Assembly: GCA_030679995.1 (NCBI GenBank)
Contig: JAUXSK010000018.1
Span: 121,492 to 185,491 of the forward strand
Reading direction: 5' to 3'
Source: Candidatus Moraniibacteriota bacterium
Lineage (GTDB): Bacteria; Patescibacteriota; Minisyncoccia; Moranbacterales; UBA2206
Length of the DNA: 64,000 nt
Shown piece after piece: positions 13,125 to 36,592 of this stretch. Made by a program: the position numbers and the translations under genes. Every line of letters begins with the position of its first letter. Within the stretch, counting starts at the first letter, position 1. The notes under the pieces were generated by a model. It saw nothing but the letters and a program-made list of their open reading frames with translations. It made no database searches and was not told the origin of the DNA.

Positions 13125-13125
13125 T

Positions 13126-16591: not shown

Positions 16592-16633
16592 GCCGCTTCT
16601 GCTTTGACGCCAGGATCGCGGTATGGTATATTT

Positions 16634-16652: not shown

Positions 16653-16659
16653 AGACAAT

Positions 16660-18020: not shown

Positions 18021-18040
18021 ATTTTCTTAAAAGATAAAAA

Positions 18041-18832
18041 ATGAAAAAATCCAACAGGGTGGACCATAATAAAAACATCATCGAAGTGGCGGACGTTTAT
18101 TTTTCATATGACGGCCGGGAAGATGTTTTGCAAAACATCACCTTGGAGATCCATCAAGGCGATTATATCGGTTTGGTCGGTCCCAACGGCGCCGGAAAAA
18201 CGACCTTGCTCAAGCTGATGCTCAACTTGCTCGTCCCGCGCTGTGGATCAGTCAGACTGTTCGGCCAGGATATGCGGGATTTCAAAGATTGGCATAAGAT
18301 CGGCTATGTGCCGCAGAAGCTGGCCAACTTCGATGCTAATTTTCCTGCCAGTGTCTTTGAGGTCGTATTGATGGGGCGGTATGATAACAAGCGCCTGTTC
18401 CAGCGCACTACGGAAACGGATAAAAAAGCCGTTCTGGATGCATTGAACCAAGTCGATATGTGGGAATTCAAAGACCGGCTGATCGGCGATCTGTCCGGCG
18501 GACAACAACAGCGGGTGTTCATTGCCCGGGCGCTGGTCAACCGGCCTGAAGTCATTTTTTTGGATGAGCCGACGGCCGCCGTGGACAGGGAGGCTCAGGA
18601 CAGTTTTTTTGCGCTGTTGCAAAAACTCAACCAGGAAGCGGGACTGACTTTGGTGCTGGTGTCACACGACATCCGGCGTTTGACGCAGGAAGTTATGCAC
18701 ATCGCCTGCGTCGACAAGACGCTGACTTGCCACATTTCGCCGGAAGAATATCTGGCTGAAAGCGAGTCTTCGGATATCGGCGGCAAGAAAGTCAAAATCC
18801 TAACTCATCATCATCACAATCAAAATGTTTGA
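18041..18832 (+). CDS. znuC: Zinc ABC transporter ATPase with a C-terminal His-rich tail.
   Basis: Walker A GPNGAGKTT, signature LSGGQQQR, Walker B IFLDEPT, and tail ILTHHHHNQNV. Confidence 0.9.
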   Translation: MKKSNRVDHNKNIIEVADVYFSYDGREDVLQNITLEIHQGDYIGLVGPNGAGKTTLLKLMLNLLVPRCGSVRLFGQDMRDFKDWHKIGYVPQKLANFDANFPASVFEVVLMGRYDNKRLFQRTTETDKKAVLDALNQVDMWEFKDRLIGDLSGGQQQRVFIARALVNRPEVIFLDEPTAAVDREAQDSFFALLQKLNQEAGLTLVLVSHDIRRLTQEVMHIACVDKTLTCHISPEEYLAESESSDIGGKKVKILTHHHHNQNV

Positions 18833-19625
18833 AAATATTTTCCAATACGGTTTCATAATACGGGGACTCGAGGCCGGCATCATTGTCGCCATAATCGCGC
18901 CGCTCATCGGGATTTTTTTGGTGCTGAGGCGTTATTCGCTGATCGCGGATACGCTGGCCCATGTCTCATTGGCGGGCATCGCGATCGGTTTGCTGTTGGG
19001 AATAAACCCCGTATTGACGGCCATCGGCACCGCTGTCGCCGCTTCTTTAGGCATCGAAAAACTGCGGACTTCCAAACGGCTTTTCGGCGAGTCGGCGCTG
19101 GCGCTTTTCCTTTCCGGAAGTCTGGCTCTCGCGGTCGTCATCCTGGGTCTGGCCAACGGTTTCAATGCCAGCCTGCTTAATTATCTGTTCGGAAGCATCG
19201 TAACCGTATCGGCAGCCGACGTGCGTATGATTTTTATCTTGGCGTTCGTGGTGGTCCTGGTTTTGGGAATTTTTTATAAACAATTGATCTATGTCACTTT
19301 CGATGAGGAAGCGGCCAGGATCAGTGGTATTCCGACGCGCCTAGTGAATTCCGTCCTGATCGTCCTGGCCGCTTTGACCGTGGCGCTGGCCATCCCGATC
19401 GTCGGAGTGCTTCTTATCTCGGCTCTCATCGTCATTCCGGTGGTGACGGCGCTTCAGTTCAGGAAGAGTTTCACCCGGACGATCATCTATGCCGAAGCCG
19501 TTTCGCTTTTTTCCGTCATCGCGGGAATCCTGGTCTCTTTCTATTTCAATCTCGCGACCGGCGGATCCATCGTCCTGGTTATGCTGGCGATTTTCGCCGG
19601 CGCGCTCATTGTCCGGCGGCGCTGA
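18825..19625 (+). CDS. znuB: Zinc ABC transporter permease.
   Basis: ABC-3 family 8-TM permease. It overlaps znuC by 8 nt. Confidence 0.85.
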   Translation: MFENIFQYGFIIRGLEAGIIVAIIAPLIGIFLVLRRYSLIADTLAHVSLAGIAIGLLLGINPVLTAIGTAVAASLGIEKLRTSKRLFGESALALFLSGSLALAVVILGLANGFNASLLNYLFGSIVTVSAADVRMIFILAFVVVLVLGIFYKQLIYVTFDEEAARISGIPTRLVNSVLIVLAALTVALAIPIVGVLLISALIVIPVVTALQFRKSFTRTIIYAEAVSLFSVIAGILVSFYFNLATGGSIVLVMLAIFAGALIVRRR

Positions 19626-20292: not shown

Positions 20293-20321
20293 TTGATTTT
20301 TTCGGGGCTGGCTGATATGCT
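20293..20321 (+). promoter_or_regulatory. Sigma70-like promoter driving leader RNA copy A.
   Basis: TTGATT, 17 nt spacer, TATGCT. The same hexamers recur before copy B. Confidence 0.5.
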
Positions 20322-20358
20322 GGACATAGTCTGAAGTTTGAAAAAATGTTTAAGAGGA

Positions 20359-20490
20359 CTATGATCCGCGCATTGAGATGAAATTTAGAAAGAATTGATT
20401 GGTCGCTTGCGTTTGCGCGGGGAGTCGAATGGCGAAACCGGTTTAGACCGAAAAGTTGCAAGACTTTTCAGCTTGGCCGGTTTTTTATTT
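20359..20490 (+). ncRNA. Conserved structured leader RNA, copy A, with an intrinsic terminator (candidate riboswitch/attenuator).
   Basis: About 85% identical to copies B and C. It has a long-range helix CCGCGCA/UGCGCGG, a conserved GGGGAGUCGAAUGGCGAAACCGG, and a long terminator hairpin followed by UUUUUU 34 nt before the GT2 start. Confidence 0.6.
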
Positions 20491-20523
20491 GCGGCAATTG
20501 GATTTTTCAATAAATGAAACCTG

Positions 20524-22101
20524 ATGTATATAAGATATCGAAAGGCGCAAACGGCCGGGAATGGTCCGCAAAACAGGACCGGTTTTGAGGAGGATAAAAA
20601 GAGGAAAAAACTGTTGAAAAAACCGATAAACTTCCGCGACTGCGCCTATTCCGGCGCCATCGGAAACGGCATCCGGTATGAAGGAAATTATTTCGTGACG
20701 CACAGCGATTTGCCCCATCGGCATAGTGCCATCCAGACTTGCCAGCCTTGCCAAAAAATATTCCTATTGCTGATAGCCGGCCTGGTTTTGGCGGGAGCCA
20801 TAATTGATATCAAAAGCGCATTGGTTGTTACGGTCGCCATCCTATCCGCTTTTTATTTTTTGGATCTGCTTTTTAATTTTTTCTTGATTATCAAAAGTTT
20901 TCAAAAATCGCGTGAGATAAAAATAACCGCTAGCGAGATAGGGGAGTTGGCTGGCGAAAAGCTTCCGGTATATACGATTTTCTGTCCGCTCTACAAGGAA
21001 TGGCAAGTCATTCCCCAGTTTACGCGGGCCATTTCCAAAATCGATTGGCCGAAAGACAAGCTGGATGTGCAACTTCTCTTGGAAGAGGATGATCCTCAGA
21101 CGATTGCGGAAGCGGAAAAGATGGGGTTGCCCGGTTATTTCCGGATTATCGTCGTGCCACACGGCCATCCGAAGACCAAACCTAAAGCTTGCAATTACGG
21201 ACTGCACCATGCCAAGGGGGAATATGCCGTCATTTTTGACGCGGAAGATATTCCTGATCCGGACCAGCTGAAAAAGGCTTATCTGTCCTTCCGGAAACTT
21301 AGGGGTGAAAAGGTTCTCTGTGTCCAAGCTAAGCTTAATTTCTACAATGCCCGCCAAAATATCCTGACGCGTTTTTTTTCTGCGGAATATGCCTTATGGT
21401 TCAATCTGGTGCTGGTCGGACTCCAATCGATCAAATCGCCGATCCCGCTGGGCGGGACTTCCAACCATTTCCGCACGCGCGATTTGCAATTGCTGAGCGG
21501 CTGGGATCCGTTCAATGTGACGGAGGATTGCGATTTGGGAATCCGGATCGCCAAATTGGGCTATCGCACCGAGATTTTCAATTCCAATACGATGGAAGAG
21601 GCGACCAGCAAAGTCGGTAACTGGATGCGCCAGCGTTCGCGCTGGATCAAAGGCTATATGCAGACCTATCTCGTGCATATGCGCCGGCCGAAGGAATTCG
21701 CGTCGGACCTTAGAAATCCGCAGGTCCTTACATTTCAGTTGGTAGTGGGCGGAAAAGTGCTTTCGATTTTCATCAATCCGTTGATGTGGCTGTTGGTCAT
21801 TTCCTATTTCTCTTTCCGCGCGACGATGGGTCCGATCATTGAGCCTTTGTATCCGAAGCCGGTTTTCTATATCTCTATCTTTTCTTTGATATTCGGGAAT
21901 TTCCTCTACGTCTATTATTATATGATCGGTTGCGCGAAACGGGAGCAGTGGGATTTGGTAAAATATGTCTTTCTGGTGCCGGTGTATTGGCTGATGATGA
22001 GCGTCGCTTCCTGGAAAGCGCTGTGGCAATTGATTTTCAAACCTCATTATTGGGAAAAGACGGTGCATGGTTTCCATTTGGCAATCAAAAAAAATGCTTA
22101 G
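20524..22101 (+). CDS. Processive family-2 glycosyltransferase (cellulose/curdlan-synthase-like) with N- and C-terminal TM segments.
   Basis: DAED (D,D,D class) and QRSRWIKG (QxxRW) motifs. Confidence 0.75.
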   Translation: MYIRYRKAQTAGNGPQNRTGFEEDKKRKKLLKKPINFRDCAYSGAIGNGIRYEGNYFVTHSDLPHRHSAIQTCQPCQKIFLLLIAGLVLAGAIIDIKSALVVTVAILSAFYFLDLLFNFFLIIKSFQKSREIKITASEIGELAGEKLPVYTIFCPLYKEWQVIPQFTRAISKIDWPKDKLDVQLLLEEDDPQTIAEAEKMGLPGYFRIIVVPHGHPKTKPKACNYGLHHAKGEYAVIFDAEDIPDPDQLKKAYLSFRKLRGEKVLCVQAKLNFYNARQNILTRFFSAEYALWFNLVLVGLQSIKSPIPLGGTSNHFRTRDLQLLSGWDPFNVTEDCDLGIRIAKLGYRTEIFNSNTMEEATSKVGNWMRQRSRWIKGYMQTYLVHMRRPKEFASDLRNPQVLTFQLVVGGKVLSIFINPLMWLLVISYFSFRATMGPIIEPLYPKPVFYISIFSLIFGNFLYVYYYMIGCAKREQWDLVKYVFLVPVYWLMMSVASWKALWQLIFKPHYWEKTVHGFHLAIKKNA

Positions 22102-23380
22102 AAAAACAAGTACAATCAAATCATTATTCACGGATGAATTCGCCAGAAGCAGTTCAATCTTCTTTTTCAGTTCCGTTGCTGCCGCTTTTTTGAATTATCT
22201 GTACCATCCTATTTTGGGACGGTTGATGGATGTGGCGGATTTCGGCGAAGCGCAGGCGGCTATCTCGCTGTTTTTGCAATTCGGCGTTTTGGCGTCCGTC
22301 TTTTCTTTTTTCACTATCAGTCTGACTTCCAATGCTGAGGCTGGGAAATCCAGGGAAGCGTCTTTCGTTATCGCTGAGTTCCGGAAATTTGCCGTGCTGG
22401 CAATTCTGGCATTGGCTGTCGGCCTGGTTTTATTTCATCAATCAGTCAAAGAGTTTTTGAATTTTTCTTCTATCTATCCGTTACTGATCCTGATGCTGCT
22501 GCTATTGGCCAATGTGTTGTTTTCTTTCCGCCGGGCCTATCTGCAGGGAGTGCGGAAAATCAAAAGCGTGTCCGCGGCGGATTTGATTTTTTCCGCGTCC
22601 CGCTTGTTTTTCGCGGTCGCTTTCGTGTATGCCGGCTGGCGTTCGTCCGGAGCGGTCGCCGGTCTTCTAGTCGGACAACTTATCGCCTTGGCGTATGTTT
22701 TTTCCAAAACCAAAGATGTCCTGGCTTCGGAAAACTGGAGCCTGCTGCCTCGCTGGCGGAATCCTGCGTTCAGGAGGGAATTCAAATTCGGCTTGTTGGT
22801 ATTGGTATCGGTTTTTTGCGTGACATTTTTTTATGCGAGCGATATCATTTTTGTGCGGCACTACTTTCCGGCGGAGGAAGCTGGTTTATACGGCGGCATA
22901 GCGACGGTGGCCAGGATAATTTTTTTCGCTACCAGCCCGATAGTTATGGTGATGCTACCGATGGTCAAGTTGAAAAATATCCCGGAAAAAAACGAGGCGC
23001 TTTTCCGGAAAGCGTTCATAACGGTGGCCGTGCTCGGACTGGCCATAACGCTGGTCTTGCAAATTTTTCCAGCGCTCGTCATCAAGATTTTGATCGGCGG
23101 ACGTTATGCCGTTTTCGCGCCGATCTTGCCGCGGTTGGGCTGGATGCTTTTTGCCGCTTCGTTGGCCAATCTGCTTTCCGCCTATTTCATCGCACTTAGG
23201 AAATATGCGCTGATCCCGATATCCCTCGCGTCCGTTTTTCTCACCGCAGTCCTGGCATTTTTTTTCCATAGCGATCCGCTTCAGATAATAAACGGTTTCA
23301 TCTGCGGACTGGTTCTCATAATTTTTTTATCATCCATAATATATGCGCAAAAAGATTTCTATCGTAATACCGGTCTATAA
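22067..23380 (+). CDS. Polysaccharide flippase/transporter (Wzx/MOP superfamily).
   Basis: About 12 TM helices. It overlaps the upstream GT2 by 35 nt. Confidence 0.6.
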   Translation: MVSIWQSKKMLRKTSTIKSLFTDEFARSSSIFFFSSVAAAFLNYLYHPILGRLMDVADFGEAQAAISLFLQFGVLASVFSFFTISLTSNAEAGKSREASFVIAEFRKFAVLAILALAVGLVLFHQSVKEFLNFSSIYPLLILMLLLLANVLFSFRRAYLQGVRKIKSVSAADLIFSASRLFFAVAFVYAGWRSSGAVAGLLVGQLIALAYVFSKTKDVLASENWSLLPRWRNPAFRREFKFGLLVLVSVFCVTFFYASDIIFVRHYFPAEEAGLYGGIATVARIIFFATSPIVMVMLPMVKLKNIPEKNEALFRKAFITVAVLGLAITLVLQIFPALVIKILIGGRYAVFAPILPRLGWMLFAASLANLLSAYFIALRKYALIPISLASVFLTAVLAFFFHSDPLQIINGFICGLVLIIFLSSIIYAQKDFYRNTGL

Positions 23381-24281
23381 TGAAGAAGAAAATATCCGGC
23401 CGGTCTATGCCAGGATGAAAGAAACCATCCGGGCCATCCCTGACTACGAGTTCGAAGTCATTTTTGTCAATGACGGCAGTTCGGACGGGACTTGGGCGGA
23501 AATATCCGGGCTGGCTGAAAGTGAAAATGGGATCAAGGCTTTGAATTTCAGCCGCAACTTCGGACACCAGGCCGCGATCGAAGCCGGACTGGCCAATGCC
23601 GGAGGGGAGGCGGCGATAACTATGGACGGGGATATGCAACATCCGCCGGAAATTATTCCTGAATTGATCAGCAAATGGGAACAAGGTTTTGAAATCGTGA
23701 ACACCAAGCGGGAAGAAACCGAAGGCATCTCTTTTTTCAAAAAGATCGCTTCCGGCATTTTCTATCGTTTGATAAACAGCATTTCCGAAGTGCATATCGA
23801 AAGCGGCTCGGCCGATTTCAGATTGGTCGGCCGGCGGGCGATGGATGAATTGAACAGATTGACGGAAAAAAACAAATTCTACCGGGGATTGATCAGTTGG
23901 ATCGGATTTGAAAGCGCTACCGTGAAATACAAGGCGGAAAAAAGACTGGGCGGAAAATCCTCTTATACTTTCAACAAGATGCTGTCGTTGGCCAGGGTCG
24001 GCATAACTTCTTTCAGTATGTTGCCGATGAAAGTGATTCTCCTGTTCGGCGCGCTGCTTTTTTTCGGCGGATTTTTGCTGACGGCCGGGATGGTCTTTTG
24101 GCGGTATTGCATCGGGTCGGCGCTGTTCAGCGGGACGGGGATATTAGCGGCTTTCATCATAATGAATAATGGGTTGTTTATGGTGATGCTTGGAATCGTT
24201 TCGATGTATCAGATCAATATGTGCAAAGAATTGCAGAATCGGCCGAATTATATCATTACTGAAAAAATAAATCTCAGCTGA
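23343..24281 (+). CDS. GT2 polyprenyl-phosphate sugar synthase (DPM1/GtrB/ArnC-like) with two C-terminal TM helices.
   Basis: ISIVIPVYNEEENI...VNDGSSDGT...DGDMQHPPE and a C-terminal membrane hairpin. Confidence 0.75.
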   Translation: MRKKISIVIPVYNEEENIRPVYARMKETIRAIPDYEFEVIFVNDGSSDGTWAEISGLAESENGIKALNFSRNFGHQAAIEAGLANAGGEAAITMDGDMQHPPEIIPELISKWEQGFEIVNTKREETEGISFFKKIASGIFYRLINSISEVHIESGSADFRLVGRRAMDELNRLTEKNKFYRGLISWIGFESATVKYKAEKRLGGKSSYTFNKMLSLARVGITSFSMLPMKVILLFGALLFFGGFLLTAGMVFWRYCIGSALFSGTGILAAFIIMNNGLFMVMLGIVSMYQINMCKELQNRPNYIITEKINLS

Positions 24282-24305
24282 CTATTAATCATTAAGATCA
24301 GTATT

Positions 24306-25124
24306 ATGGATGAAAAAAATCCGAAAGTTTCCGTCCTGATGTCCGCCTATAATGAAGAGCGGTATGTCGGCGCCGCCATCGAAAGCATCCTGGACCAAAC
24401 CTACCATGATTTTGAATTGATCATCATCGATGACCGCAGTCAGGACGCGACCTGGGAATTGATCTCCGGGTATGCCGGACGCGATCCGCGGGTGAGGGCG
24501 TCCAGGAATGAAAAGAATCTGGGAATTTCCGGCGCGCTCAACAGAGGGCTCGTGCTGGCCCGCGGGGAATATGTCGTCAAGATGGACGCGGACGACTGGT
24601 CCTATCCGGACCGGCTGGAAAAGCAAGTCGGGTTTATGGAAAAAAATCCCCAAGTCGCCATCAGCGGCGGCACGATGGAAGTTTGCGATGAGAATCTGGC
24701 GGTCCTGAACAAACGGGCCTATAATCTGACCGACCGGGAGATACGCCGGAAAATTTTCCGGTACAATCCGTTCTGCCATCCGGCCGTGATCTACCGGACG
24801 GACATCGCCAAGGATGTCGGCGGCTATTGCCTGATCGATTCGGCCGGCGATTATGAATTATATTTCAAACTCGGATTGCACGGGGAGTTCGCCAACTTGC
24901 CGGACACCCTTTTGAAATACCGGGTCAATCGCGGCTCCATTTCCGTTTATAAGGCGAGAAGCCAGGAATGCGACACATTATATGTGCGGCTCAAGGCGGT
25001 TTTTGAATACGGCTACAAGATGCGCCCGGTCGATAAATTATATTTCGCCTGCCAGTTTTTGAGTATGTATCTCATCCCACAACGGATCAAAGCCTGGATA
25101 TTTAACCGATTAAGAAGCAGTTAA
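24306..25124 (+). CDS. Family-2 glycosyltransferase.
   Basis: VSVLMSAYNEERYV...IIIDDRSQDAT...VVKMDADD. Confidence 0.75.
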   Translation: MDEKNPKVSVLMSAYNEERYVGAAIESILDQTYHDFELIIIDDRSQDATWELISGYAGRDPRVRASRNEKNLGISGALNRGLVLARGEYVVKMDADDWSYPDRLEKQVGFMEKNPQVAISGGTMEVCDENLAVLNKRAYNLTDREIRRKIFRYNPFCHPAVIYRTDIAKDVGGYCLIDSAGDYELYFKLGLHGEFANLPDTLLKYRVNRGSISVYKARSQECDTLYVRLKAVFEYGYKMRPVDKLYFACQFLSMYLIPQRIKAWIFNRLRSS

Positions 25125-25129
25125 CCATT

Positions 25130-26806
25130 ATGGCCCGATTTTTTAAAAAAATCAGCGCGTCATTCCGCGAAAACATACTGCCGGTCACTTTGATCCTGGC
25201 GGCTTCTTTCAGTCTGGCGAGTTTCCTTTTTTTCTATTTGGACGGACAACAAAATACCACCTATTTCGACGCGCAATCCCATCTGAATATGTCCCGTAAA
25301 ATCGTGGACAATCTGAATCCCGGTCTGGGCCAACTCGGCGGTTTGTGGCTGCCGCTTTTGCACTTGCTGATGGTGCCGTTCATCTGGAGCGATTTTATGT
25401 GGCGTTCCGGCTGGGCAGGGGCTTGCGTTTCAATGCCGGCTTTCGTCCTGTCGGTCTATTTCGTTTTCAAGACCGTCGAGTTTCTTTTCCGCGATCGGAC
25501 GGCGGCTTTTCTCGGAGCTTTGGTATATATGGCCAGTATGAATATGCTTTTGCTCCAGAGTATGGCGATGATGGAGCCGCTATTTAATCTGACGATCATC
25601 GGCAGTATCTACTATCTTTCCCGTTGGGCCCGGACGGATAATTTAGCGGATCTGTCCATCGGGGCTTTCTTCGTTTTTTTGAGCACACTGACCCGCTATG
25701 AAGGCTATGCGGTTCTGGCGGCATCCGCCGCCGCCGTGCTCATCGTCACTTTCATAAAAAATTTCAACGCACGCCACTGGTATCGGATCGTGGAAGGCAA
25801 ATTCCTGATCTTTATGACACTGGCGTCTTTTGGCGTCTTACTGTGGCTGGCCTACTCGTTGGTGATTTTCGGCGATCCGTTGCATTGGACTCATCCTAAT
25901 ACTCGGGATGTGTCGGCGGTTATTGAAACCGTTCAAGATGGAAATCCGGCCGGACTTTTGCGCGGGGATCCCACGGACTATTACCGCCACGATTTATCCA
26001 GGGCGCTTCTGACATTCTGGTGGACCGCGGCCATCGGTAATGGTCTGATAGTTTTTTTAGCGGGCATAATAGGCTTCCTATCACTCCTGTGGTTTTGCGT
26101 GAAAAATAGCCGCTATGCCTATCTGTTCATTCCGGCCGTGCTGATTTCTGTCGCATTCCCGCTGTTCATCATAGCGCTGATGTATTTTGGACAGGTTTCG
26201 CTCTTGCCACCATTCCTCGGTTTCACCGGTATCTTCGACAAGGGGAATAATCTGGCCGACGAAGCCGGCATCCGTTACACTCTCGCGATGCTGCCTTTCG
26301 TCGCGATTTTTATGGGCTGGCTGGCCGCGGGCGGAGCCTATCGGAAAATCACCATCCTCCTGCTCATCGTTTTCCAAACAGGCTCCTTTTTTTTCGGTCC
26401 GCTGTTTCTGACCTATGATCTTTCCTTGAAATGGAAAGGCGTGTATGGACAGGAAAACCGTTCGGTGGAATGGTTCAAGAAAAATTATTCCGGCGGCCTC
26501 ATCCTGGAGAGCGCGTTGTCCCACGAGGCGGAGATGTTCCAGAACGGATTGGCATACAAGAACTATATCCACGAAGGGACGGGCCACTATTGGGAGGAAT
26601 CTTTGAAAAACCCGGTGCGCTACGCGACTTGGATAATTATGAACAAGAGCGCCAAGACCGACACGTCCGGCATTTGGGGGCAAGATATCTTGACCGACAA
26701 ATTCCGCGACTCGAAGATCTTGCGGAACAATTTCAATCTGGTTTATGACGACGGCAAAATCCTGATTTACAAAATAAAGTCCGGCAAGGATTTGCTCCGT
26801 TCTTGA
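25130..26806 (+). CDS. GT-C fold membrane glycosyltransferase (ArnT/PMT-like, about 12 TM).
   Basis: Polytopic N-terminal domain with a first extracytoplasmic loop carrying DAQSHL, plus a soluble C-terminal domain. It lies next to the DPM1-like GT2 that would make a lipid-linked donor for it (inference). Confidence 0.5.
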   Translation: MARFFKKISASFRENILPVTLILAASFSLASFLFFYLDGQQNTTYFDAQSHLNMSRKIVDNLNPGLGQLGGLWLPLLHLLMVPFIWSDFMWRSGWAGACVSMPAFVLSVYFVFKTVEFLFRDRTAAFLGALVYMASMNMLLLQSMAMMEPLFNLTIIGSIYYLSRWARTDNLADLSIGAFFVFLSTLTRYEGYAVLAASAAAVLIVTFIKNFNARHWYRIVEGKFLIFMTLASFGVLLWLAYSLVIFGDPLHWTHPNTRDVSAVIETVQDGNPAGLLRGDPTDYYRHDLSRALLTFWWTAAIGNGLIVFLAGIIGFLSLLWFCVKNSRYAYLFIPAVLISVAFPLFIIALMYFGQVSLLPPFLGFTGIFDKGNNLADEAGIRYTLAMLPFVAIFMGWLAAGGAYRKITILLLIVFQTGSFFFGPLFLTYDLSLKWKGVYGQENRSVEWFKKNYSGGLILESALSHEAEMFQNGLAYKNYIHEGTGHYWEESLKNPVRYATWIIMNKSAKTDTSGIWGQDILTDKFRDSKILRNNFNLVYDDGKILIYKIKSGKDLLRS

Positions 26807-26830
26807 TTATCCTAAGGATATCTGTTATGC
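26803..26830 (+). promoter_or_regulatory. Sigma70-like promoter driving leader RNA copy B.
   Basis: TTGATT, 16 nt spacer, TATGCT. Confidence 0.5.
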
Positions 26831-26871
26831 TGTGGATAGTTGAATATTGATAGAACGCCATACTTTGAAAG

Positions 26872-27009
26872 GCTATGATCCGTGCATTGAGATGAAATTT
26901 TGAGAGAGTTGATTGGTTGCTTACGTTTGCACGAGGAGTCGAATGGCAAAACCGGTTTGAACCAAAAAGTTGTGAGACTTTTTGGTTTAAGTCGGTTTTT
27001 ATTTTTTTT
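26872..27009 (+). ncRNA. Conserved structured leader RNA, copy B.
   Basis: Same motif as copy A. P1 carries a compensatory change (CCGUGCA/UGCACG versus CCGCGCA/UGCGCGG). The terminator stem ACCAAAAAGU/ACUUUUUGGU also covaries. U-run. Confidence 0.6.
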
Positions 27010-27057
27010 CTTTTTTTAGTCAGCTTCACCTAACTTTTTAATGGAATATTTTTTTCC

Positions 27058-29145
27058 ATGGTTTTTAATTATAAAATATTTATTATAGCTTTTGTTTTGA
27101 TCCTCTTTTTTATAGGGGGATTCAATATTTATTTTTCAAGAAAAAATATTGTAAAAAACAATCAAGTATCTGTCGAGCAATCAGATATATATCAAAAAAT
27201 AATAAATGAAGATATAAATAAATTAGAGCAAAAAACTGCCTTGACGGGCAAGATATATGTCGATGATCCTAATATCCCAGCGCCCACCAACCAGTGGTTC
27301 AGCTCAGTGATATTTGAAAAGACATCGCAACCTATATTCGCTTATCCGATGGCTGTGAAAATGAATAATGATGGGTTTGGGTTTTCCTATCCATCGGTTG
27401 TTTCAACGCAAGATACTGTTTTCGCTTCGTATAAATCTGATTTGAAAGTAGTTTTTCAAAAAAATGAGCTTGTTTCTAGTGTTTCATCTTTTGATGATAT
27501 GTCAGTCGGTGTTTTGCAAAAAAACGGAGAAAATACCATTTCAAAACTTAAAATTACGCACGGATCTCCTTTCGTATATATTTCGGTGTTGCCAGGCGAG
27601 TCTTTTAATATCCAATCAGAAGAGTTGATTTTAATGGATAAAAGTGCGGATTATTTTGTGTTTGCGTCTGGTGGAAAATTTTTCGCATTTTTCCCATCTT
27701 TAAATGAAATGTCTGTGAAAAAAAATGATGATCACTCGATTACCGTTTCCAATGTCCGCAAAGAAGCTCTTATTTCAATCGCTGTTTTGCCAAATCTTGA
27801 ATGTCTGGATATTTTCAGCCAGTATGCATTGGATCCGATAATTGGCACAAACGTTGATTTTAATGTGACGGATAATCGGATCAGCACTAAATACGAAATT
27901 GTTACGAAGAGCGGAGGAAAAACACTTTTTGCTTTGTTGCCAAACAGTTACGATTCTTTTGAACAACAGTTGAAAAATCAGAATCCAATTGGGGAGTATG
28001 ACACACTCAGGGGTAAACAGTTATTGTACCAGGGAAGGATCTTTGATTTTTCAGAGGAAGCTGGGCCTATTCCACGACAACTGGAAGTGTCATTTTTATC
28101 GCATTCTGACAAGGAAAATTTACGTAATTTTATTAAGACAGATGCAGATAGGTTAACAGTCACTGAGAATGATACCTATTTTGTTGGAAAAAAACTTTTT
28201 GCTATGGCGAATGTCTTGGATATAGCGGAGCAGCTTGGTATGGAAAGAGAATCGGATATTTTGAAAATAAAATTAAAAACTGAGTTAGAAACATGGAAAA
28301 ATAATACGCTGGCTGGCGGACAGCAGAAAAAATATTTTTACTATGATCCGATAATCAAAGGAATCGTGGGGGAGACGGCTAGTTTCGGCAGTGAGTTATT
28401 TAATGATCATAATTTTCATTACGGATATTTTATCTATGCGGCAAGCATACTCTCGCGCTATGACAATAAATATCTGTCGGATAACCAAACTTTTATCAAT
28501 CTGCTGGTGAAGGATATCGCCAATAATGACCGCGATGACAAAACATTTCCGTATCTGAGGGGTTTTGATGCTTATGAGGGACATAGTTGGGCTTCAGGCT
28601 TTGGGATGTTTGCTGACGGCAATAATCAGGAATCAAGTTCCGAGGCAGTCAACGCATGGTACGCATTGTATTTGTGGAGCGATATTATCGGAAATAAAAA
28701 TCTCAAGGAGACGGCGGAATATTTATATTTTAAGGAATCATCAAGCGCATTGGATTATTGGCTCAATATTGATAAGGGGGATTTGCGTTTTGAAAATTTC
28801 CAACATTCCATGGTAGCGCTTGTTTGGGGTGGAAAATTGGATTTTGCGACTTGGTTCAGTCCGCATCCAGAGGCTATGCTGGGAATCCAATTGATTCCGT
28901 TCAGTCCCGCTAGCGGTTATTTGGGGCGTGATGCGGGGCGTGTCCAGGAAAATTTGTCGTCAGAAAACGCTTTTCAGAGTCCCGCACTATTCAAGGATTA
29001 TCTGGCGATGTACCGGGCGTTTTATGATGTTACCGGAGCAAGGCAAATGATAGATAAATTGAAGCCAACAGACATCGATAGCGCGAATTCAAGGAGTTTT
29101 ATGGAGGCTTGGTTGCTTGTTCTCGAAAATAAGGAAAATCATTAA
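27058..29145 (+). CDS. Membrane-anchored GH81-like endo-beta-1,3-glucanase.
   Basis: N-terminal TM helix. NDHNFHYGYFIYAAS and NNQESSSEAVNAWYALYLW resemble the GH81 catalytic-region motifs (DHHFHYGY; E-x-S-S-E pair) as I recall them. Confidence 0.55.
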   Translation: MVFNYKIFIIAFVLILFFIGGFNIYFSRKNIVKNNQVSVEQSDIYQKIINEDINKLEQKTALTGKIYVDDPNIPAPTNQWFSSVIFEKTSQPIFAYPMAVKMNNDGFGFSYPSVVSTQDTVFASYKSDLKVVFQKNELVSSVSSFDDMSVGVLQKNGENTISKLKITHGSPFVYISVLPGESFNIQSEELILMDKSADYFVFASGGKFFAFFPSLNEMSVKKNDDHSITVSNVRKEALISIAVLPNLECLDIFSQYALDPIIGTNVDFNVTDNRISTKYEIVTKSGGKTLFALLPNSYDSFEQQLKNQNPIGEYDTLRGKQLLYQGRIFDFSEEAGPIPRQLEVSFLSHSDKENLRNFIKTDADRLTVTENDTYFVGKKLFAMANVLDIAEQLGMERESDILKIKLKTELETWKNNTLAGGQQKKYFYYDPIIKGIVGETASFGSELFNDHNFHYGYFIYAASILSRYDNKYLSDNQTFINLLVKDIANNDRDDKTFPYLRGFDAYEGHSWASGFGMFADGNNQESSSEAVNAWYALYLWSDIIGNKNLKETAEYLYFKESSSALDYWLNIDKGDLRFENFQHSMVALVWGGKLDFATWFSPHPEAMLGIQLIPFSPASGYLGRDAGRVQENLSSENAFQSPALFKDYLAMYRAFYDVTGARQMIDKLKPTDIDSANSRSFMEAWLLVLENKENH

Positions 29146-29154
29146 TAACATAAT

Positions 29155-31215
29155 TTGAAAACATTTATGCAACAACTAATTAAAAATAAAAACATATCCA
29201 GGATAGCGGCATACCTGTGGTTGGTTTTGGGTGAGATGTCTACGCTTGCGGCGATTATCGCTGTCGGATGGTTTTTGATTGGTTATTATGCGCATTTCGA
29301 ATTTTTGCAAACTGGCTATCAGGATTGGATTTATCATGCCTTTCGAGTTCAGGATATTTCTCAGTTCGGTATCGCTTCCTGGGATCATATTTGGAGCGGC
29401 GGTATAAATCATTGGCGAGCGTTTCAATATATTGAGCATATGCTTACTTATGGCGTGGTAAACCTAACTGGAATGTCTATTACGCATGCCATGCTTTGGA
29501 TATCGATAGTTGTTTTTATCGCATTACGTGTTTTTATGTATGGGGTACTCAGGTATTTGAAAATAAGCCGCTTGTTTAGCGCTGTCGCTGTTATTGTTTC
29601 ATTTGCATTTTCTCAACAGTGGACGGCCCTAAAGGAGTTTTCTATTTTTGTGGGTTTTATCGTGGTTCCGTTATATGTGTTGCTTTGGATTGCGACTTTA
29701 AAATCAATGCGCTATGTTTTTTTGCTTGCCGCTATCACCGGAGCGTCTTGGTCGATACACCCTGTCGTAGGTTATAGTATGTCCGGTATGCTCCTATTTC
29801 TCGTGCTTGCTAATAATCTCAAAAAGGACATAAGAAAATTGATGCTGGTTGTATTAGTATATTTCGTCAGTTCAATGCCATTCACAATACCGTATTTTTT
29901 TTCGGGATACAGCGTCAGTAATTTATTTTATGTTACGCCGCAGTTTTTGCGAATGTTGCTTGTTCCTGAATATTTTGGATTGAGCCTGCTCTATTTTATT
30001 TTGCTTGCTGTGAGTTGGGTAATTATGGTTGTAAAATCAAGCGAATCACCTCGCTGGGCAAAAATACTACTCTTGTATTGCACGGTTTATTTGTGCTTTA
30101 TTTATTTTGGTTTATTGGGATATTTTCCAGTTTTTATCAATAAATTTCAATTCTCGCGTGCCATTCCATTTATTGCTTTGGTATTACCTTTTTGTTTTGC
30201 TGCTTTTTTTCAGACCGCTCTTCCAAATATTCGATCGCGTATGGCGTACGCGATATTTATTGTATTGATAGCTATTGGCATTTCACAATCGATTGAAATT
30301 GCGACACGATATTCCGGTCAGCCGATAGACTCGATTCAAGACCCGGTGGCAATATATTTTGCAAACAAAGAAGTGCCATATGGAAGCATATATTTCAAAG
30401 ATGTTACTGAGGCAAGTTATTTAGGGAAAACCGGGTTGCGTTTTATAACATCGTACAATCAGCATTTATTACCCAATCCGTACTCTATGCGCTTCGACGG
30501 ACTTATGAAAACTGACATTTCTTATACTGGCGTAACGGAACGTCAGATAAAAATGATCAATGATTATAGTCTTGTTTTGGGAGTCGAATATGTCTTCATT
30601 CCTAAACTCTCTCCGCTTGTGAATGGTTTGACTGTCAGTCAAGGGGATTTTGACGCTCTATTTGAAAATTTGGGAGAAGTCAATGTGCCTTCGGATGTTT
30701 TTGCAGTTTTGCGTAATCGCCAGCCGATTGCAAATGCGTATGCTTTCGATAAAAATAATATGGATAATTTTCTTCGTTTTTCGGAGATACCCAAACCGAC
30801 ATTGCAAATTGATTCATATAAGCTGTGGGATGACGAAATCAGTCGTATGGCGCAATTGATACGGTCAGGACAAATGAAATCATTGCCGATGAGCTTTGTT
30901 TGGCCAAATAAACTTGTGGTGGATGCGAAAGAAATTCAAGATATGAATCAGCCAAGTTTGTTGTTAACTCAGAGTTATGATCAGAATTGGACTATAGAAA
31001 ATGAAAAGTCAGCGATTAAACCGACAAATTTGCGATTTATGTCAGTCAATCTTCCCAAGGAAAAAATTTCTGATAAGGTGGTCTTATCGAACAACTGGCC
31101 GCGTTGGCACTGGCCTATCCAATCACTCGGCCTGGTTATGATTGTTGTCACCGGAATTATTGCGATATTTCGAAGGCATAAAATAATAAATTCTACTAAT
31201 AGGACTAATTTATGA
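29155..31215 (+). CDS. Large polytopic membrane protein with a C-terminal extracytoplasmic domain and a final TM helix, function unknown (synthase accessory subunit?).
   Basis: About 10 TM helices in the first 380 aa, then a ~280-aa soluble domain, then the TM helix LGLVMIVVTGIIAIF. A 4-nt overlap (ATGA) with the downstream GT2 synthase implies translational coupling. Confidence 0.6.
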   Translation: MKTFMQQLIKNKNISRIAAYLWLVLGEMSTLAAIIAVGWFLIGYYAHFEFLQTGYQDWIYHAFRVQDISQFGIASWDHIWSGGINHWRAFQYIEHMLTYGVVNLTGMSITHAMLWISIVVFIALRVFMYGVLRYLKISRLFSAVAVIVSFAFSQQWTALKEFSIFVGFIVVPLYVLLWIATLKSMRYVFLLAAITGASWSIHPVVGYSMSGMLLFLVLANNLKKDIRKLMLVVLVYFVSSMPFTIPYFFSGYSVSNLFYVTPQFLRMLLVPEYFGLSLLYFILLAVSWVIMVVKSSESPRWAKILLLYCTVYLCFIYFGLLGYFPVFINKFQFSRAIPFIALVLPFCFAAFFQTALPNIRSRMAYAIFIVLIAIGISQSIEIATRYSGQPIDSIQDPVAIYFANKEVPYGSIYFKDVTEASYLGKTGLRFITSYNQHLLPNPYSMRFDGLMKTDISYTGVTERQIKMINDYSLVLGVEYVFIPKLSPLVNGLTVSQGDFDALFENLGEVNVPSDVFAVLRNRQPIANAYAFDKNNMDNFLRFSEIPKPTLQIDSYKLWDDEISRMAQLIRSGQMKSLPMSFVWPNKLVVDAKEIQDMNQPSLLLTQSYDQNWTIENEKSAIKPTNLRFMSVNLPKEKISDKVVLSNNWPRWHWPIQSLGLVMIVVTGIIAIFRRHKIINSTNRTNL

Positions 31216-32744
31216 GCATAAAACTATTGAAACAATACGTGCCGCACGCACGCATCACGTCCGCTAAAATTCTCAGTATGACCACAGTCTTTCTTTTGGG
31301 CGCCCCGATGGTCGTGATTTATTATGGAGCTTTTGTTTTTAATCCTGCCAATGCGGATAATGTCTTTATGTATATAATCCAGGTGGTTGCGGATATTATC
31401 GCGATTATAGCGTTGCTTGGACTTTGGGTGACGGTTCTTATGGATGTGATAACCCAGCAACATCATCGCTCGCATCATTTTGATCCAGGTGATTTTCTTG
31501 TTGAAAAAAAACCGACTATAGATATATTCGTGACTGCTATGGGTGAATCTTTAGAGACTCTTGAAGAAACTCTTACAGCAGCGATAAATATGGATTATCC
31601 GCATAACACTTTTATTTTGGATGATGGTAAATCCGATGCTTTAAAGAAGTTTGCACAATCATTGGGCGTGATATATGTTGTTCGTCCAGACAGGAGGCAT
31701 GCTAAGGCAGGGAATGTCAATAATGGACTAAGATTCAGCAAAAGTGAATTTTTCGCAATTTTTGATGCGGATCAAGTGCCTAAAAAAGATTTTATTACCA
31801 GGTTGTTGCCATACATGAAAGATTCGAAAATGGCAATGGTCCAATCTCCCCAATATTTCGCCAATACGCATTCTTTCATTGCGGCTGGAACATCACAGGC
31901 CCAAGAAGTTTTTTATAAATATGTTTGTCCGGCAAAAAATATCTCTAACTCAGCTTTTTGTGTCGGGACGAATGTTGTTTTCAGGCGTAGCGCCATCGAA
32001 GATATCGGCGGGATAGCCCGCAACAATTCGGAGGATATCTGGACATCATACCAGCTTCATGAAAATGGCTGGCACACGATTTTTGTGAATGAGGTATTGG
32101 CAATCGGCGAGGCTCCGGCGACGGTAGTTTCATATTTCAAACAGCAAAGGCGCTGGGCTAAGGGAGGGCTTTCGATGCTTTTTACGAAAAATCCGCTTCG
32201 ATCAAAAAAATTAAATCTTGATCAAAAAATGCAATATTTTATTTCCAATTCATTTTTTCTAGTCGGTGTGTCCATCTTTGTTTATGTGCTTTTTCCGATC
32301 CTGTATCTTCTCTTCGGCATCAAGCCTCTTGATACCGAAAATGGCATCGTTTGGGTACTTCATTACGTTCCTTATTTTGCTTTGTATTATTCTTTGACGT
32401 ATTTATTTTTAGGCAGTATTCGGTTGGAAACTCTTTCGACAGCATTGGCAAGTTTTTACCCATATCTGCTTGGACTTTTTTCAGCTCTTTTCGATACGGA
32501 GCAAGTATGGGTGGCAACGACTTCAAGAAAAAATACGGAAGACGCTTTTATGAAATGGGCGTGGCCGCATGTGTTTATAATTTTTCTTTCTCTGTTTAGC
32601 CTGGTTGTCGGATGGTATAATCCATATAATTTTTGGACGACAGTATTCAATACGGCATGGGTTGTTTTGAATGCCTATTTGCTCTTTTTGTTTATAACTG
32701 GAGAAAAAAGAATTGTTAAAAATAGAAATAATATAATTCAATAA
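31212..32744 (+). CDS. Processive GT2 beta-glycan synthase (cellulose/curdlan/chitin-synthase-like).
   Basis: ILDDGKSD, FDADQVP and QQRRWAKGG (QxxRW) motifs; N- and C-terminal TM bundles. Confidence 0.75.
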   Translation: MSIKLLKQYVPHARITSAKILSMTTVFLLGAPMVVIYYGAFVFNPANADNVFMYIIQVVADIIAIIALLGLWVTVLMDVITQQHHRSHHFDPGDFLVEKKPTIDIFVTAMGESLETLEETLTAAINMDYPHNTFILDDGKSDALKKFAQSLGVIYVVRPDRRHAKAGNVNNGLRFSKSEFFAIFDADQVPKKDFITRLLPYMKDSKMAMVQSPQYFANTHSFIAAGTSQAQEVFYKYVCPAKNISNSAFCVGTNVVFRRSAIEDIGGIARNNSEDIWTSYQLHENGWHTIFVNEVLAIGEAPATVVSYFKQQRRWAKGGLSMLFTKNPLRSKKLNLDQKMQYFISNSFFLVGVSIFVYVLFPILYLLFGIKPLDTENGIVWVLHYVPYFALYYSLTYLFLGSIRLETLSTALASFYPYLLGLFSALFDTEQVWVATTSRKNTEDAFMKWAWPHVFIIFLSLFSLVVGWYNPYNFWTTVFNTAWVVLNAYLLFLFITGEKRIVKNRNNIIQ

Positions 32745-32755
32745 GATAAAATAAT

Positions 32756-33544
32756 ATGCCAAGGACAATATTCGCAGAAATCAAACAATGGTTAATAAAT
32801 AGCGCGTATTTCGTCGCAGTCTTTGTATTGGCCTTTGGAATCGCGACACAAGCATTGGTACGGCGAGTGAATGGTTATGAGGCGACCAAGAAGCCCCTAT
32901 TTTTTTCTATAAACAAGGAAAATATTATATTGTCAAATTCTGTTGCTGGAAGAATCGAAAATGTCGCAGTTTCAACGGGTGAACATGTGCACAAAGGGGA
33001 TCTGCTTGTTAGCATAGTGGATGATTCTATGACGCAGCGCATCATTGCTTTGAAGGGATTGGCTAATAATAATATTTCCGCTGAAACGGAATTGGAAACG
33101 CTCAAATCGCGCGTGGGGGAATATGAAATTCGTGCGCCTCGAGACGGGGTGATTTATTACATTTCGGCGGCTGAAGGAAGTTATTTAAATGCCAGTTCTC
33201 CGATTTTGACTATGTTTGCGGATAGCAATGTAAAAATTATGGGTATGGTAAATCAGGAACAATATACAAAAATACAACAAAACAAAGAAATCGATGTCTA
33301 TAGCCCTCGATTTGAGCAGGTGTATAAAATAATTTTTACAGGTGTCGGGCGCGTACAAGCAGCAACAAATTATGAAGAGAGTAAGTTCGAAATCCAATTC
33401 CGTTTTGCAGATGAAGAGAATGGCGCAGCTTTCATCGAGGGTGAGCAACTTGAAATGATAGCCAGAAATGATACCGATGATGCTGCTTTAAAGCCGTCTT
33501 TTCGCATCGCTAAATTGTGGAATAATATGATTTTAGGGGATTAA
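32756..33544 (+). CDS. HlyD/biotin-lipoyl-like membrane-fusion-type protein with a single N-terminal TM.
   Basis: TM anchor then GRIENVAVSTGEHVHKGDLLVSI, a lipoyl-like hairpin typical of MFPs. Confidence 0.5.
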   Translation: MPRTIFAEIKQWLINSAYFVAVFVLAFGIATQALVRRVNGYEATKKPLFFSINKENIILSNSVAGRIENVAVSTGEHVHKGDLLVSIVDDSMTQRIIALKGLANNNISAETELETLKSRVGEYEIRAPRDGVIYYISAAEGSYLNASSPILTMFADSNVKIMGMVNQEQYTKIQQNKEIDVYSPRFEQVYKIIFTGVGRVQAATNYEESKFEIQFRFADEENGAAFIEGEQLEMIARNDTDDAALKPSFRIAKLWNNMILGD

Positions 33545-33588
33545 ATCGCTTTATTTTCAGCCATTTGCCAGATTTCCGATTGTCTGAT

Positions 33589-33597
33589 ATTATCTGG
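33589..33597 (+). promoter_or_regulatory. Extended -10 (TGaTATTAT) about 39 nt upstream of leader RNA copy C.
   Basis: Same -10-to-element spacing as in copies A and B (38-42 nt). Confidence 0.4.
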
Positions 33598-33635
33598 GCA
33601 ACAGCAGAATCTTAAAAATAGCATACTTAAAAAGA

Positions 33636-33770
33636 TTATGATCCGCGCATTGTGATGAAATTTCGAGAGAGTTTCTTGGTCACTTATGTTTGTGCGGGGA
33701 GTCTAATAGTGAAACCGGTTTGGGCCGAAAAGTTGTGAGACTTTTCAGTTTGGACCGGTTTTTTATTTTT
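33636..33770 (+). ncRNA. Conserved structured leader RNA, copy C.
   Basis: Same motif. P1 has a G-U variant (UGUGCGG). The terminator is followed by UUUUUUAUUUUU. It lies 134 nt before the first TasA-like gene. Confidence 0.6.
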
Positions 33771-33903
33771 GGAAAAACAACCCAATTTTAATATATATAA
33801 AGGTCGAGGCGGAAACTGCCTAAAGTTTCAAAATTTTTATTCCGATTCATAAAATAGGAATAAAAAATAATTTTAATCAGCGTTTAATAAATAATAAAAA
33901 ACT

Positions 33904-35088
33904 ATGAAAAAAATGATCAAAAGCGGACTCATCGTGCTCGCGGTCGCTGCAATTGCCGGGTATGGAACATACTCTTTCTTTAGCGACACAGAAACGTCTT
34001 CGGGAAACAATTTTACCGCAGGAGAAATCGACCTGACCGTGACCAATACTGGCAGCGCTACGGACGGCGCTTGTACGTTTGATAATACGCCAGGCGGACC
34101 GATTTTTAATTGTACTGATGTGAAGCCTGGAGACAATGGTGAAAGCACATTGAACTTCAACCTTACAAGCAATCCTGCTTGGGCTTGTATGTATGTGGAC
34201 AATGTTGTTGATAGTGATAATGGGTGCAACGATCCGGAATTGGCTGCTGAATCAGTTTGTACGGAAGATGGAAATGGTGAATTAGACAACGCTCTAATGC
34301 TGACTGTTTGGGTTGATGACGGCGCTGGAGATGGCGGAACAGCATGTAATAATATCCGAGACGGATCAGAAGAGGTAATTATAGGCAATCAGGCGTTAAG
34401 CTCTTTTGTGTTGCCAACGGGAGGCTATGTCCTTCCTATTTCAGACGCAAGTGCTGATTCTATGATGACCGCTCCAGTCCAACCGGGTGACCATTGTGTC
34501 GGTGTCGCGTGGAGTGTCGATCCAACAACAGGAAACGAAGTGCAGACAGATAAATTAGGTGGTGATCTGACCTTCTATGTTGAACAGGCAAGAAACAATG
34601 ATGGATTCACATGCGCGGCACATTTCACGCCTGCGGAAGGAGTGCAAACATTGACTCTTGAAAATGAGATACAGAATCCGACAGGACCTTGGACACCGAT
34701 TACCGGTGACGGGATACAAGGAACATTAGTTTGGCAAGGAGATGGAGATACATTTGATTACACTCTAACTGCGCAAGGATTACCTGCTAATTCATCATAC
34801 AGTTTGATTTATTATGCTGATCCTTACCCAGGTAATAATCCAGGTAAATTAATCGGAACACACATGACCGATGGAGATGGCGAAATCGATGCTGCTGGAA
34901 ATCCAGATTTAGGAATGGATTTGCCAGATCCTGCAGATGCTAACTTCGGGACTGGTGCTAAGATTTGGTTGATTCCAAGCAGTGCATATGATGCTGCGAG
35001 CAGTAGTATCATTTCTTGGACACCAGATACTACTACCTGGTTGTTCGAAGGTAATGTTTACATCCATTACAACGATACGAATAACTAA
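33904..35088 (+). CDS. TasA/camelysin-like secreted protein with a SipW-cognate signal peptide (paralog 1).
   Basis: MKKMIKSGLIVLAVAAIAGYGTYSFFSDTETSSGNNFTAGEIDL matches the SipW-cognate class motif. A paralog-conserved DVKPGDNGE...AWACMYVD block follows. Confidence 0.75.
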   Translation: MKKMIKSGLIVLAVAAIAGYGTYSFFSDTETSSGNNFTAGEIDLTVTNTGSATDGACTFDNTPGGPIFNCTDVKPGDNGESTLNFNLTSNPAWACMYVDNVVDSDNGCNDPELAAESVCTEDGNGELDNALMLTVWVDDGAGDGGTACNNIRDGSEEVIIGNQALSSFVLPTGGYVLPISDASADSMMTAPVQPGDHCVGVAWSVDPTTGNEVQTDKLGGDLTFYVEQARNNDGFTCAAHFTPAEGVQTLTLENEIQNPTGPWTPITGDGIQGTLVWQGDGDTFDYTLTAQGLPANSSYSLIYYADPYPGNNPGKLIGTHMTDGDGEIDAAGNPDLGMDLPDPADANFGTGAKIWLIPSSAYDAASSSIISWTPDTTTWLFEGNVYIHYNDTNN

Positions 35089-35199
35089 ACAAGATGTAGT
35101 CTTTTACTTCCGCTCATTTTCAAAATGGGCGGGAGAATAAAGATCTAAGGATAATTAATTACTTGCATAAGTAAGTACCTAAGTAAGTATTAAAACAAT

Positions 35200-36543: not shown

Positions 36544-36592
36544 TTATTGTTAAATATGTGATGTCCATCGCGTGCTATAAGAATACATTCTA

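Follow-up and report, generated by a model that had tools for sequence, protein, structure and literature searches.

Candidate riboswitches of a divergent c-di-GMP-II type in front of three matrix operons of a Candidatus Moraniibacteriota bacterium

A stretch of 64,000 nucleotides (nt) from a Candidatus Moraniibacteriota bacterium (assembly GCA_030679995.1, contig JAUXSK010000018.1, positions 121,492 to 185,491 of the forward strand; hereafter the window, in whose own numbering coordinates are given) carries the same leader sequence in front of three envelope or matrix operons, which raises the question of what kind of RNA this leader is and how it may act on the genes behind it. Family comparisons, structure and gene context point to a divergent, unannotated variant of the class II cyclic di-GMP (c-di-GMP-II) riboswitch fold and not to a new riboswitch class. 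The leaders form a single three-member family of direct repeats, all on the plus strand and within 13.5 kb (copy A, 20345-20493; copy B, 26859-27007; copy C, 33622-33770), with 77-80% identity to the reference copy in a repeat search. These spans are slightly wider than those given in an earlier, sequence-only reading of this DNA, which had proposed the leader. Each copy lies 5' of its operon and consists of a promoter-like site, a structured core of ~100 nt and a long hairpin with a U-run, and an alignment of the copies showed conservation throughout. A covariance model built from the three copies retrieved exactly these three in the window with the filters off (122-132 bits, E of ~1e-33 to 1e-36; 121.9 bits for copy B and 124.9 bits for copy C), the next-best match being 14.8 bits. 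The repeat search and the covariance model thus agree that the three-copy plus-strand leader is real.

Within each core an aptamer can be traced that consists of a closing helix (P1), a kink-turn, a second helix (P2; UCCGCGCA/UGCGCGGG) and an H-type pseudoknot, in which GGUCGCU of the P2 loop pairs with GCGA-AA-CC of the 3' tail and two adenines bulge out. In copy A (20348-20448, plus strand), P1 is formed by 20348-20354 and 20442-20448 and P2 by 20365-20372 and 20414-20421. The kink-turn of this copy is made up of a C-stem (20357-20359/20424-20426), a UAU bulge (20360-20362) and G.A pairs (20363-20364/20422-20423), and its pseudoknot of 20401-20407 paired with 20431-20439, A20436 and A20437 being bulged. 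As judged from sequence and not from a three-dimensional structure, the kink-turn GAC-UAU-GA ... GGA-GUC, with its C-stem, 3-nt bulge and tandem G.A pairs, is present in all three copies. Copy B (26862-26962, plus strand) has P1 at 26864-26869/26956-26961, P2 at 26879-26886/26928-26935 with one C.A mismatch, and a pseudoknot of GGUUGCU (26915-26921) with GGCAAAACC (26945-26953), in which one C-G pair has become U-A. Similarly, copy C (33625-33725, plus strand) has P1 at 33626-33631/33719-33724, P2 at 33642-33649/33691-33698, and a pseudoknot of GGUCACU (33678-33684) with AGUGAAACC (33708-33716), in which one G-C pair has become A-U. The core that the sequence-only reading had taken as invariant therefore varies, reading GAGGAGUCGAAUGGCAAAACCGG in copy B and GGGGAGUCUAAUAGUGAAACCGG in copy C, and its differences are compensated in the pseudoknot (GGUUGC/GCAAAACC in copy B and GGUCAC/GUGAAACC in copy C). 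An insertion of ~25 nt in the P2 loop (20373-20400, 26887-26914 and 33650-33677) is specific to leaders from bacteria of the Candidate Phyla Radiation (CPR); RNAalifold weakly suggests, with one-sided changes only, that it may form a 6-bp extension of P2, UUGAGA with UUUAGA.

A relaxed Rfam search assigned the three cores to the c-di-GMP-II riboswitches, at scores below the gathering cut-offs of 53.5 bits (RF01786) and 40 bits (RF03169, c-di-GMP-II-GAG). Copy A matched the full RF03169 model (31 bits, E=3.5e-4), and copies B (18.1 bits) and C (22.5 bits, E=0.019) matched RF01786 over its full length. RF03169 is reportedly an orphan variant, described by Weinberg and colleagues in PNAS in 2017. 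Full-length alignment with the c-di-GMP-II clan, together with the kink-turn, P2 and the pseudoknot with its bulged adenines, makes homology of the leader aptamers to the c-di-GMP-II fold highly probable, and overturns the view that they represent a novel riboswitch without a known consensus, c-di-GMP-II having been among those considered. Indeed, the window copies have in common with RF01786 and the Clostridium acetobutylicum structure 3Q3Z the order of P1, kink-turn, P2 and H-type pseudoknot with two bulged adenines, the UGA...GGAG kink-turn signature and the UUGG and AA-CCG strands of the pocket. They resemble RF01786 also in lying within the 5' leaders of genes for surface structures and biofilm, with a proposed positive regulation as in C. 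difficile (PMC3649979). However, the window copies score 18-31 bits against the cut-off of 53.5, the canonical pseudoknot pairs G40-C68 and A42-U66 are U-A and G-C, the joining strand (J) reads NAAU instead of AGU, and the P2 loop contains ~25 additional nt that may extend P2 by 6 bp. In addition, P1 is rich in A-U and G-U pairs, whereas the canonical P1 is closed by G-C pairs, and the host is a CPR bacterium.

The likeness to RF03169 lies in the pseudoknot GGUCGC/GCGA..CC, common to the window copies and the GAG consensus, and RF03169 is the best Rfam model for copy A and the orthologous leaders L029 (38.0 bits) and L026 (34.9 bits), the range of 31-38 bits remaining below the cut-off of 40. 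Yet the RF03169 consensus is GCGAGACC, whereas the window copies and their relatives have GCGAAACC, with the canonical adenine at the equivalent of A69; most of these GAA-type members also have one additional J nucleotide, and all scores are sub-threshold. When copy A was aligned with RF03169, an A stood opposite the G with which the model begins the bulge in the pseudoknot 3' strand, and at this site each of the 14 family members has GCGAAACC, or GCAAAACC or GUGAAACC. They hence lack the nucleotide that would define the GAG variant, if its name is read as referring to a G at the first bulged position. The GAA-type RNAs thus combine the pseudoknot core of the orphan GAG consensus with a pocket that differs from it at one adenine, which makes them a natural comparison for what the GAG and GCG variants bind.

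The search for further members that accompanied the sequence-only reading as a proposal yielded relatives in genomes and metagenomes. A pattern scan of species-representative genomes gave 10 matches, two of which are supported by the covariance model: L015, the ortholog of copy A in the metagenome-assembled genome (MAG) of a 'Parcubacteria group bacterium' (leader ~86% identical, as mean column identity in a four-sequence aptamer alignment; flanking protein 72%), and L017, a related element in a Thermanaerothrix MAG. The other eight, without covariance-model support, look like chance matches. When metagenomes were scanned with the 24-nt 3' core, 20 loci came up, and the covariance model recovered the whole architecture in 11. 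These 11 include a third A-type leader (L029) as well as the A-type copy (L028) and the C-type copy upstream of TasA (L026) of the L015 genome; elements from other organisms were found in L024 (two), in L027/L030/L031 and L034 (two each), and in L037, L038 and L039. In viral contigs, which served as a negative control, the 21-nt core had 38 chance matches, and the fold was absent from all of them. The genes behind the relatives encode Wzz/BY-kinase, sortase, a CARDB surface protein, a proline/threonine-rich (P/T-rich) secreted protein and OmpR-type regulators, which is again a surface and matrix theme.

The GAA-type relatives (L017, L024, L027/L034 and L037-L039) share with the window copies an identical 3' core (GGGGAGC-NAAU-RGCGAAACCGG), the kink-turn, P2, the UGGUCGCU pseudoknot strand, a terminator beginning with ACCGG, and exopolysaccharide, surface-protein or regulator genes downstream. 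They differ in an extra hairpin 3' of the pseudoknot strand, where the window copies have the CPR insertion 5' of it, in a P1 closed by GG/CC, and in higher Rfam scores (up to 48.3 bits with RF01786 for the non-CPR relatives). In L027, two GCGAAACC-type elements stand back to back (3629-3726, minus strand, and 3959-4062, plus strand), an arrangement also seen in L030, L031 and L034, and precede divergent genes for the Wzz/BY-kinase exopolysaccharide co-polymerase and the P/T-rich secreted protein. One element of this pair (L027b) has a 3-nt joiner and ACCGA, and reaches 39.6 bits against the RF03169 cut-off of 40. The CPR leaders, the Thermanaerothrix element and those of other metagenomic contigs thus make up a coherent c-di-GMP-II-like subgroup just under the RF01786 and RF03169 cut-offs; since it falls systematically below both, it is missed by genome annotation.

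Conservation of the fold was assessed in a family alignment of 14 sequences from which variable loops had been excised. In this alignment, 88.7% of the cells were paired and 15 of the 24 pairs change on both sides; none of 500 shuffles reached the observed pairing values, and slid registers gave only 33-45%. Covariation is strong in P2 and in the C-stem, the latter being paired in 95% of cells with a distal pair that occurs as G-C, A-U and U-A. All cells of the seven pseudoknot pairs are paired and the AA bulge is invariant, which constitutes independent evidence because the Rfam covariance model does not score pseudoknot pairs. The innermost P1 pairs are A-U in the CPR copies and G-C in other organisms, and P2 was recovered independently by RNAalifold from six CPR leaders. 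Helix conservation and compensatory changes bear out the selection on RNA structure that the sequence-only reading had put forward, and the compensatory changes it had quoted for P2 and the terminator were correct.

Each aptamer is flanked by a promoter-like site and a terminator. The site of copy A (20293-20321, plus strand) consists of a -35 element TTGATT (20293-20298), a 17-nt spacer and a TGn-extended -10 element TATGCT (20316-20321); that of copy B (26803-26831, plus strand) is TTGATT-N17-TATGCT with a -35 element overlapping the stop codon of the upstream gene, and that of copy C (33565-33593, plus strand) is TTGCCA-N17 followed by a TG-extended TATTAT. The hexamers lie where the sequence-only reading had placed them, with TTGATT-N17-TATGCT in two copies. 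All six CPR leaders aligned, orthologs and paralogs, retain the layout TTGnnn-N17-TGnTATnnT. A generic promoter scan of the window found no enrichment (31 sites against 29.9 expected from shuffles), and it is the conservation that suggests use of these sites as promoters.

The terminators with their U-runs extend over 20435-20486 in copy A (minimum free energy (MFE) fold of -22.7 kcal/mol), 26949-27000 in copy B (a perfect 20-bp stem found by a terminator scan; -27.7 kcal/mol) and 33712-33764 in copy C (MFE fold; -27.0 kcal/mol), all on the plus strand. Folds and scan agree with the earlier description of a long hairpin and U-run, the terminator ends lying 34-134 nt before the start codons (20524, 27058 and 33904). 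Across six leaders the terminator helix is paired in 94% of cells, with two compensatory pairs, and was recovered in the RNAalifold consensus of the six CPR leaders; its statistical support comes from the slide control and these two pairs only, since most changes tolerate G-U pairing and a shuffle control with six leaders therefore gave no significant result. In A-type and C-type leaders the terminator is followed by a second similar block (ATATATAAG..GGCG.AAAC.GCC; window ~20524-20560 and ~33790-33825). The block of copy A and the annotated start codon of the glycosyltransferase family 2 (GT2) gene overlap, so that either this start or a second regulatory hairpin is in question.

The 5' arm of the terminator (AAACCGGUUUAGACC...; from 20435 onward in copy A, beginning with AAACCGG) contains the bulged AA, the pseudoknot CC and the entire P1 3' strand. 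Folds and consensus show that, by this overlap of strands, formation of the terminator is mutually exclusive with the ligand-bound aptamer, and the overlap is seen in every non-CPR relative too. The pseudoknot duplex (~-6 to -8 kcal/mol) is far weaker than the terminator (-23 to -28 kcal/mol), and, as the latter is far more stable than the aptamer helices, the default state would be termination; ligand binding, by holding the 3' strands of pseudoknot and P1, should block it. On this thermodynamic model the leaders are likely to be transcriptional ON riboswitches. Transcription would start at the conserved promoter ~25 nt upstream of the aptamer. Without ligand, the terminator would form, consuming the 3' strands of pseudoknot and P1, and a transcript of ~160 nt would end at the U-run. 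With ligand in the pocket between P1, C-stem and pseudoknot, these strands would be held in the aptamer, only the upper terminator hairpin would form, far from the U-run, and RNA polymerase would read into the operon. A high c-di-GMP level would thereby co-induce two exopolysaccharide operons and the TasA-fibre/SipW operon as one matrix or attachment regulon. This direction of regulation is that reported for C. difficile (PMC3649979), in which each of the four c-di-GMP-II riboswitches acts positively, on genes for pilins, adhesins and surface proteins.

Pfam agrees with the earlier assignment of the downstream operons, all on the plus strand, to envelope and matrix functions. Operon A (20524-26806) encodes a GT2, a Polysacc_synt flippase, two further GT2 and a PMT_2-like membrane protein. 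Operon B (27058-33544) encodes a GH81 glucanase, a membrane protein of 686 amino acids (aa) without known family, a cellulose-synthase-like GT2 and an HlyD-like protein; the GH81 domain indicates that it is probably a beta-1,3-glucan-type exopolysaccharide system. Homologues of the GH81 protein come mostly from MAGs of Moranbacteria and Saccharibacteria. Operon C (33904-38355) encodes three TasA/camelysin-like proteins (33904-35088, 35200-36543 and 36593-37675) and a SipW-like S24/S26 signal peptidase (37699-38355), and NCBI names its identical protein MDP1833927.1 'TasA family protein'. In Bacillus subtilis, SinR and SlrR repress the eps and tapA-sipW-tasA operons, and the EAR RNA is located inside eps. 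The likeness is that exopolysaccharide and TasA/SipW fibre operons are co-regulated as one matrix regulon; the difference is that protein repressors and a processive-antitermination RNA act there, whereas the same leader aptamer precedes each operon here. No Rfam match to EAR was found in the window at gathering thresholds. EAR/LoaP-type antitermination was rejected as an explanation of the leaders on account of this and of a fold explained otherwise.

Comparison with other genomes indicates how the three operons came to carry the same leader. Operon A with its A-type leader occurs also in L015/L041 and L029. In L041, which belongs to the same genome as L015 and L026, a gene for a 558-aa protein of operon A is directly followed by the C-type leader and the TasA operon; leader B and the GH81/GT2/HlyD operon (window 26803-33544, compared with L041 7999-10001) are absent from this close relative. 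Operon B thus has the look of inserted DNA that gained a copy of the leader cassette. In this second genome, in which the flanking protein is only 72% identical, leaders of A type and C type occupy orthologous positions. As the aptamers are 69-82% identical, about equally for orthologs and paralogs, it is the flanks that define A-type and C-type orthology, by which the duplication is older than the separation of these genomes, with each copy retained thereafter. It is the whole cassette of promoter, aptamer and terminator that was copied to new operons. GH81 operons elsewhere, in more distant Moranbacteria, lack the leader, which is therefore lineage-specific for operon B, and Rfam at gathering thresholds gave no match in three of these orthologous loci. 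The recruitment of the cassette to an exopolysaccharide operon that has no leader in sister lineages is a clear case of a regulon that grew through duplication of a riboswitch. The ~200-nt regions upstream of GH81-GT2-HlyD operons in L002 (9799-10000), L005 (9788-10000) and L007 (9779-10000) are unrelated to the window leader.

As to the ligand, c-di-GMP is the best-supported candidate and is somewhat favoured from the pocket sequence, because most ligand-contact positions are kept; the guess of the sequence-only reading was thus probably right. In 3Q3Z, c-di-GMP is contacted by A13, A14, U37, G39, U60, A61, C68, A69, A70, C71, C72, G73 and A74 (PMC7288161), and these letters agree with the RF01786 consensus at an offset of -1. 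The cmscan alignments show that U37, G39, A61, A69, A70, C71, C72 and G73 are kept in the window copies. In agreement with the Rfam consensus, the A14-U60 pair is G-C and A74 is G; which nucleotide corresponds to A13 is ambiguous, the 5' joiner being 1-2 nt (AG, AA or GA). The pocket is intermediate, with G-C-A in the canonical aptamer, G-A-A in the window copies and G-A-G in the orphan variant. The complete model, with a divergent c-di-GMP-II ON switch, c-di-GMP as its ligand and three matrix operons under its control, is rather more probable than its alternatives together. Diguanylate cyclase genes have been found to be commoner in sediment-attached ultra-small MAGs (PMC9938205). No description of a native riboswitch or of c-di-GMP signalling in CPR/Patescibacteria was found in the literature searched, and regulation in these bacteria is almost unknown; one aptamer shared by the TasA-fibre operon and two polysaccharide operons may provide a testable model of the switch to an attached state.

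Several observations weigh against this model. Ligand contact C68 is A in the window copies, with U instead of G as its partner, the joining strand is one nt longer than the canonical one, and P1 is weak, in a register that varies among the copies. A motif-pattern scan for GGDEF, EAL, HD-GYP and PilZ gave nothing credible in the window or in ~375 kb of related loci, a result that is uninformative on the rest of the genome. Rfam at gathering thresholds gave no match in the window, so that automatic annotation would report nothing; the match to a known family that, according to the sequence-only reading, would speak against novelty exists below the thresholds and is missing at them. No report of the ligand of the GAG variant, the best Rfam model for copy A, was found in the literature searched, and the orthologous GH81 operons (L002, L005 and L007-L009; 55-61% protein identity) have different upstream regions without covariance-model match. 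Some of these points would also suit the same fold and ON switch with another ligand, the GAA-type pocket (G67-A68-A69 against the canonical G-C-A) having shifted to a different signal derived from nucleotides; this could be a linear dinucleotide such as pGpG, a cyclic dinucleotide other than c-di-GMP, or the signal of the orphan GAG/GCG variants. All members indeed have A in place of C68, the pseudoknot has the GGUCGC/GCGA of the orphan RF03169 consensus instead of the canonical GGGCAC/GUGC, the longer J strand and the lack of visible c-di-GMP enzymes fit as well, and the RNAs fall systematically between the two Rfam families. However, the canonical sequence is kept in the two bulged adenines, the CCG that follows them, the UUGG strand and A61, and the window copies have A where the GAG consensus has its defining G. 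The change of C68 to A is compensated by that of its partner from G to U, in the way a structural pair would be, and the gene associations are classic c-di-GMP targets. Another ligand is hence rather unlikely. Still less likely is the more specific idea that the GCGAAACC RNAs constitute a distinct specificity class within the c-di-GMP-II fold, between the canonical and the orphan GAG/GCG types, that would sense a signal other than c-di-GMP and act in the Moranbacteria as a master switch of attachment through TasA fibres and two exopolysaccharides; such a class, if true, would reveal an uncharacterised second-messenger pathway in CPR bacteria.

Explanations without a small-molecule ligand fare worse. 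The choice between terminator and read-through could be made by a protein, either a kink-turn-binding one (L7Ae/YbxF-like) or another RNA-binding protein, since a consensus kink-turn is present, kink-turns bind L7Ae-family proteins (PMC5061560), and small-molecule binding by the leader is a prediction. Yet the entire element, pocket nucleotides included, matches a small-molecule aptamer fold to which the kink-turn is integral in 3Q3Z, and the three loci have no candidate regulator gene linked to them, so that such a protein-dependent attenuator or antiterminator is improbable. Attenuation, which the sequence-only reading had offered as the other possibility, found no support; no leader open reading frame (ORF) for leader-peptide attenuation was noticed, no systematic ORF search having been made. 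The same leaders might, lastly, have no regulatory function and represent a repeat resembling a miniature inverted-repeat transposable element (MITE), a duplicated promoter-terminator cassette or a small-RNA gene that stands before operons incidentally. Three similar copies lie close together, a close relative lacks copy B along with the GH81 operon, so that the cassette moved or was duplicated at least once, and a discrete small RNA would be a further product of a promoter with a terminator behind it. Against this, every copy stands immediately upstream of an operon and on its coding strand, no inverted termini, target duplications or further copies on either strand were found in the window, and A- and C-type copies are at orthologous sites in other genomes, with compensatory changes and homology to a riboswitch fold. 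This reading is very improbable and already largely refuted, the MITE-like form having been rejected on orientation, cross-genome synteny and covariation.

Some further features of the window and of the related loci were observed. A metal-homeostasis cluster lies upstream of the regulon (8129-19625) and encodes a CDF transporter, an ArsP-like permease, an S-adenosylmethionine synthetase, HlyD with an AcrB-type RND pump, Fur and ZnuABC. On the other side, an ORF on the minus strand (40333-41505) has a weak match (27 bits) to CsoSCA_cat, the catalytic domain of the carboxysome-shell carbonic anhydrase, which is unexpected in CPR bacteria; this ORF is kept beside the TasA operon in L041. A direct repeat of 100 nt (4421-4520/5009-5108, 81% identical) inside an ORF of 1081 aa (1916-5161) suggests tandem domain repeats in a large surface protein. 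Two other repeats are present in two copies each: that at 334-402/1752-1820 (88%) looks like paralogous N-termini of minus-strand genes, and that at 48096-48161/55475-55540 (92%) covers a gene end and a downstream hairpin-like sequence. In a related Moranbacteria MAG, the UvrB gene (L005 1-1394) is, by its Pfam families, interrupted by an intein that has a LAGLIDADG endonuclease domain.

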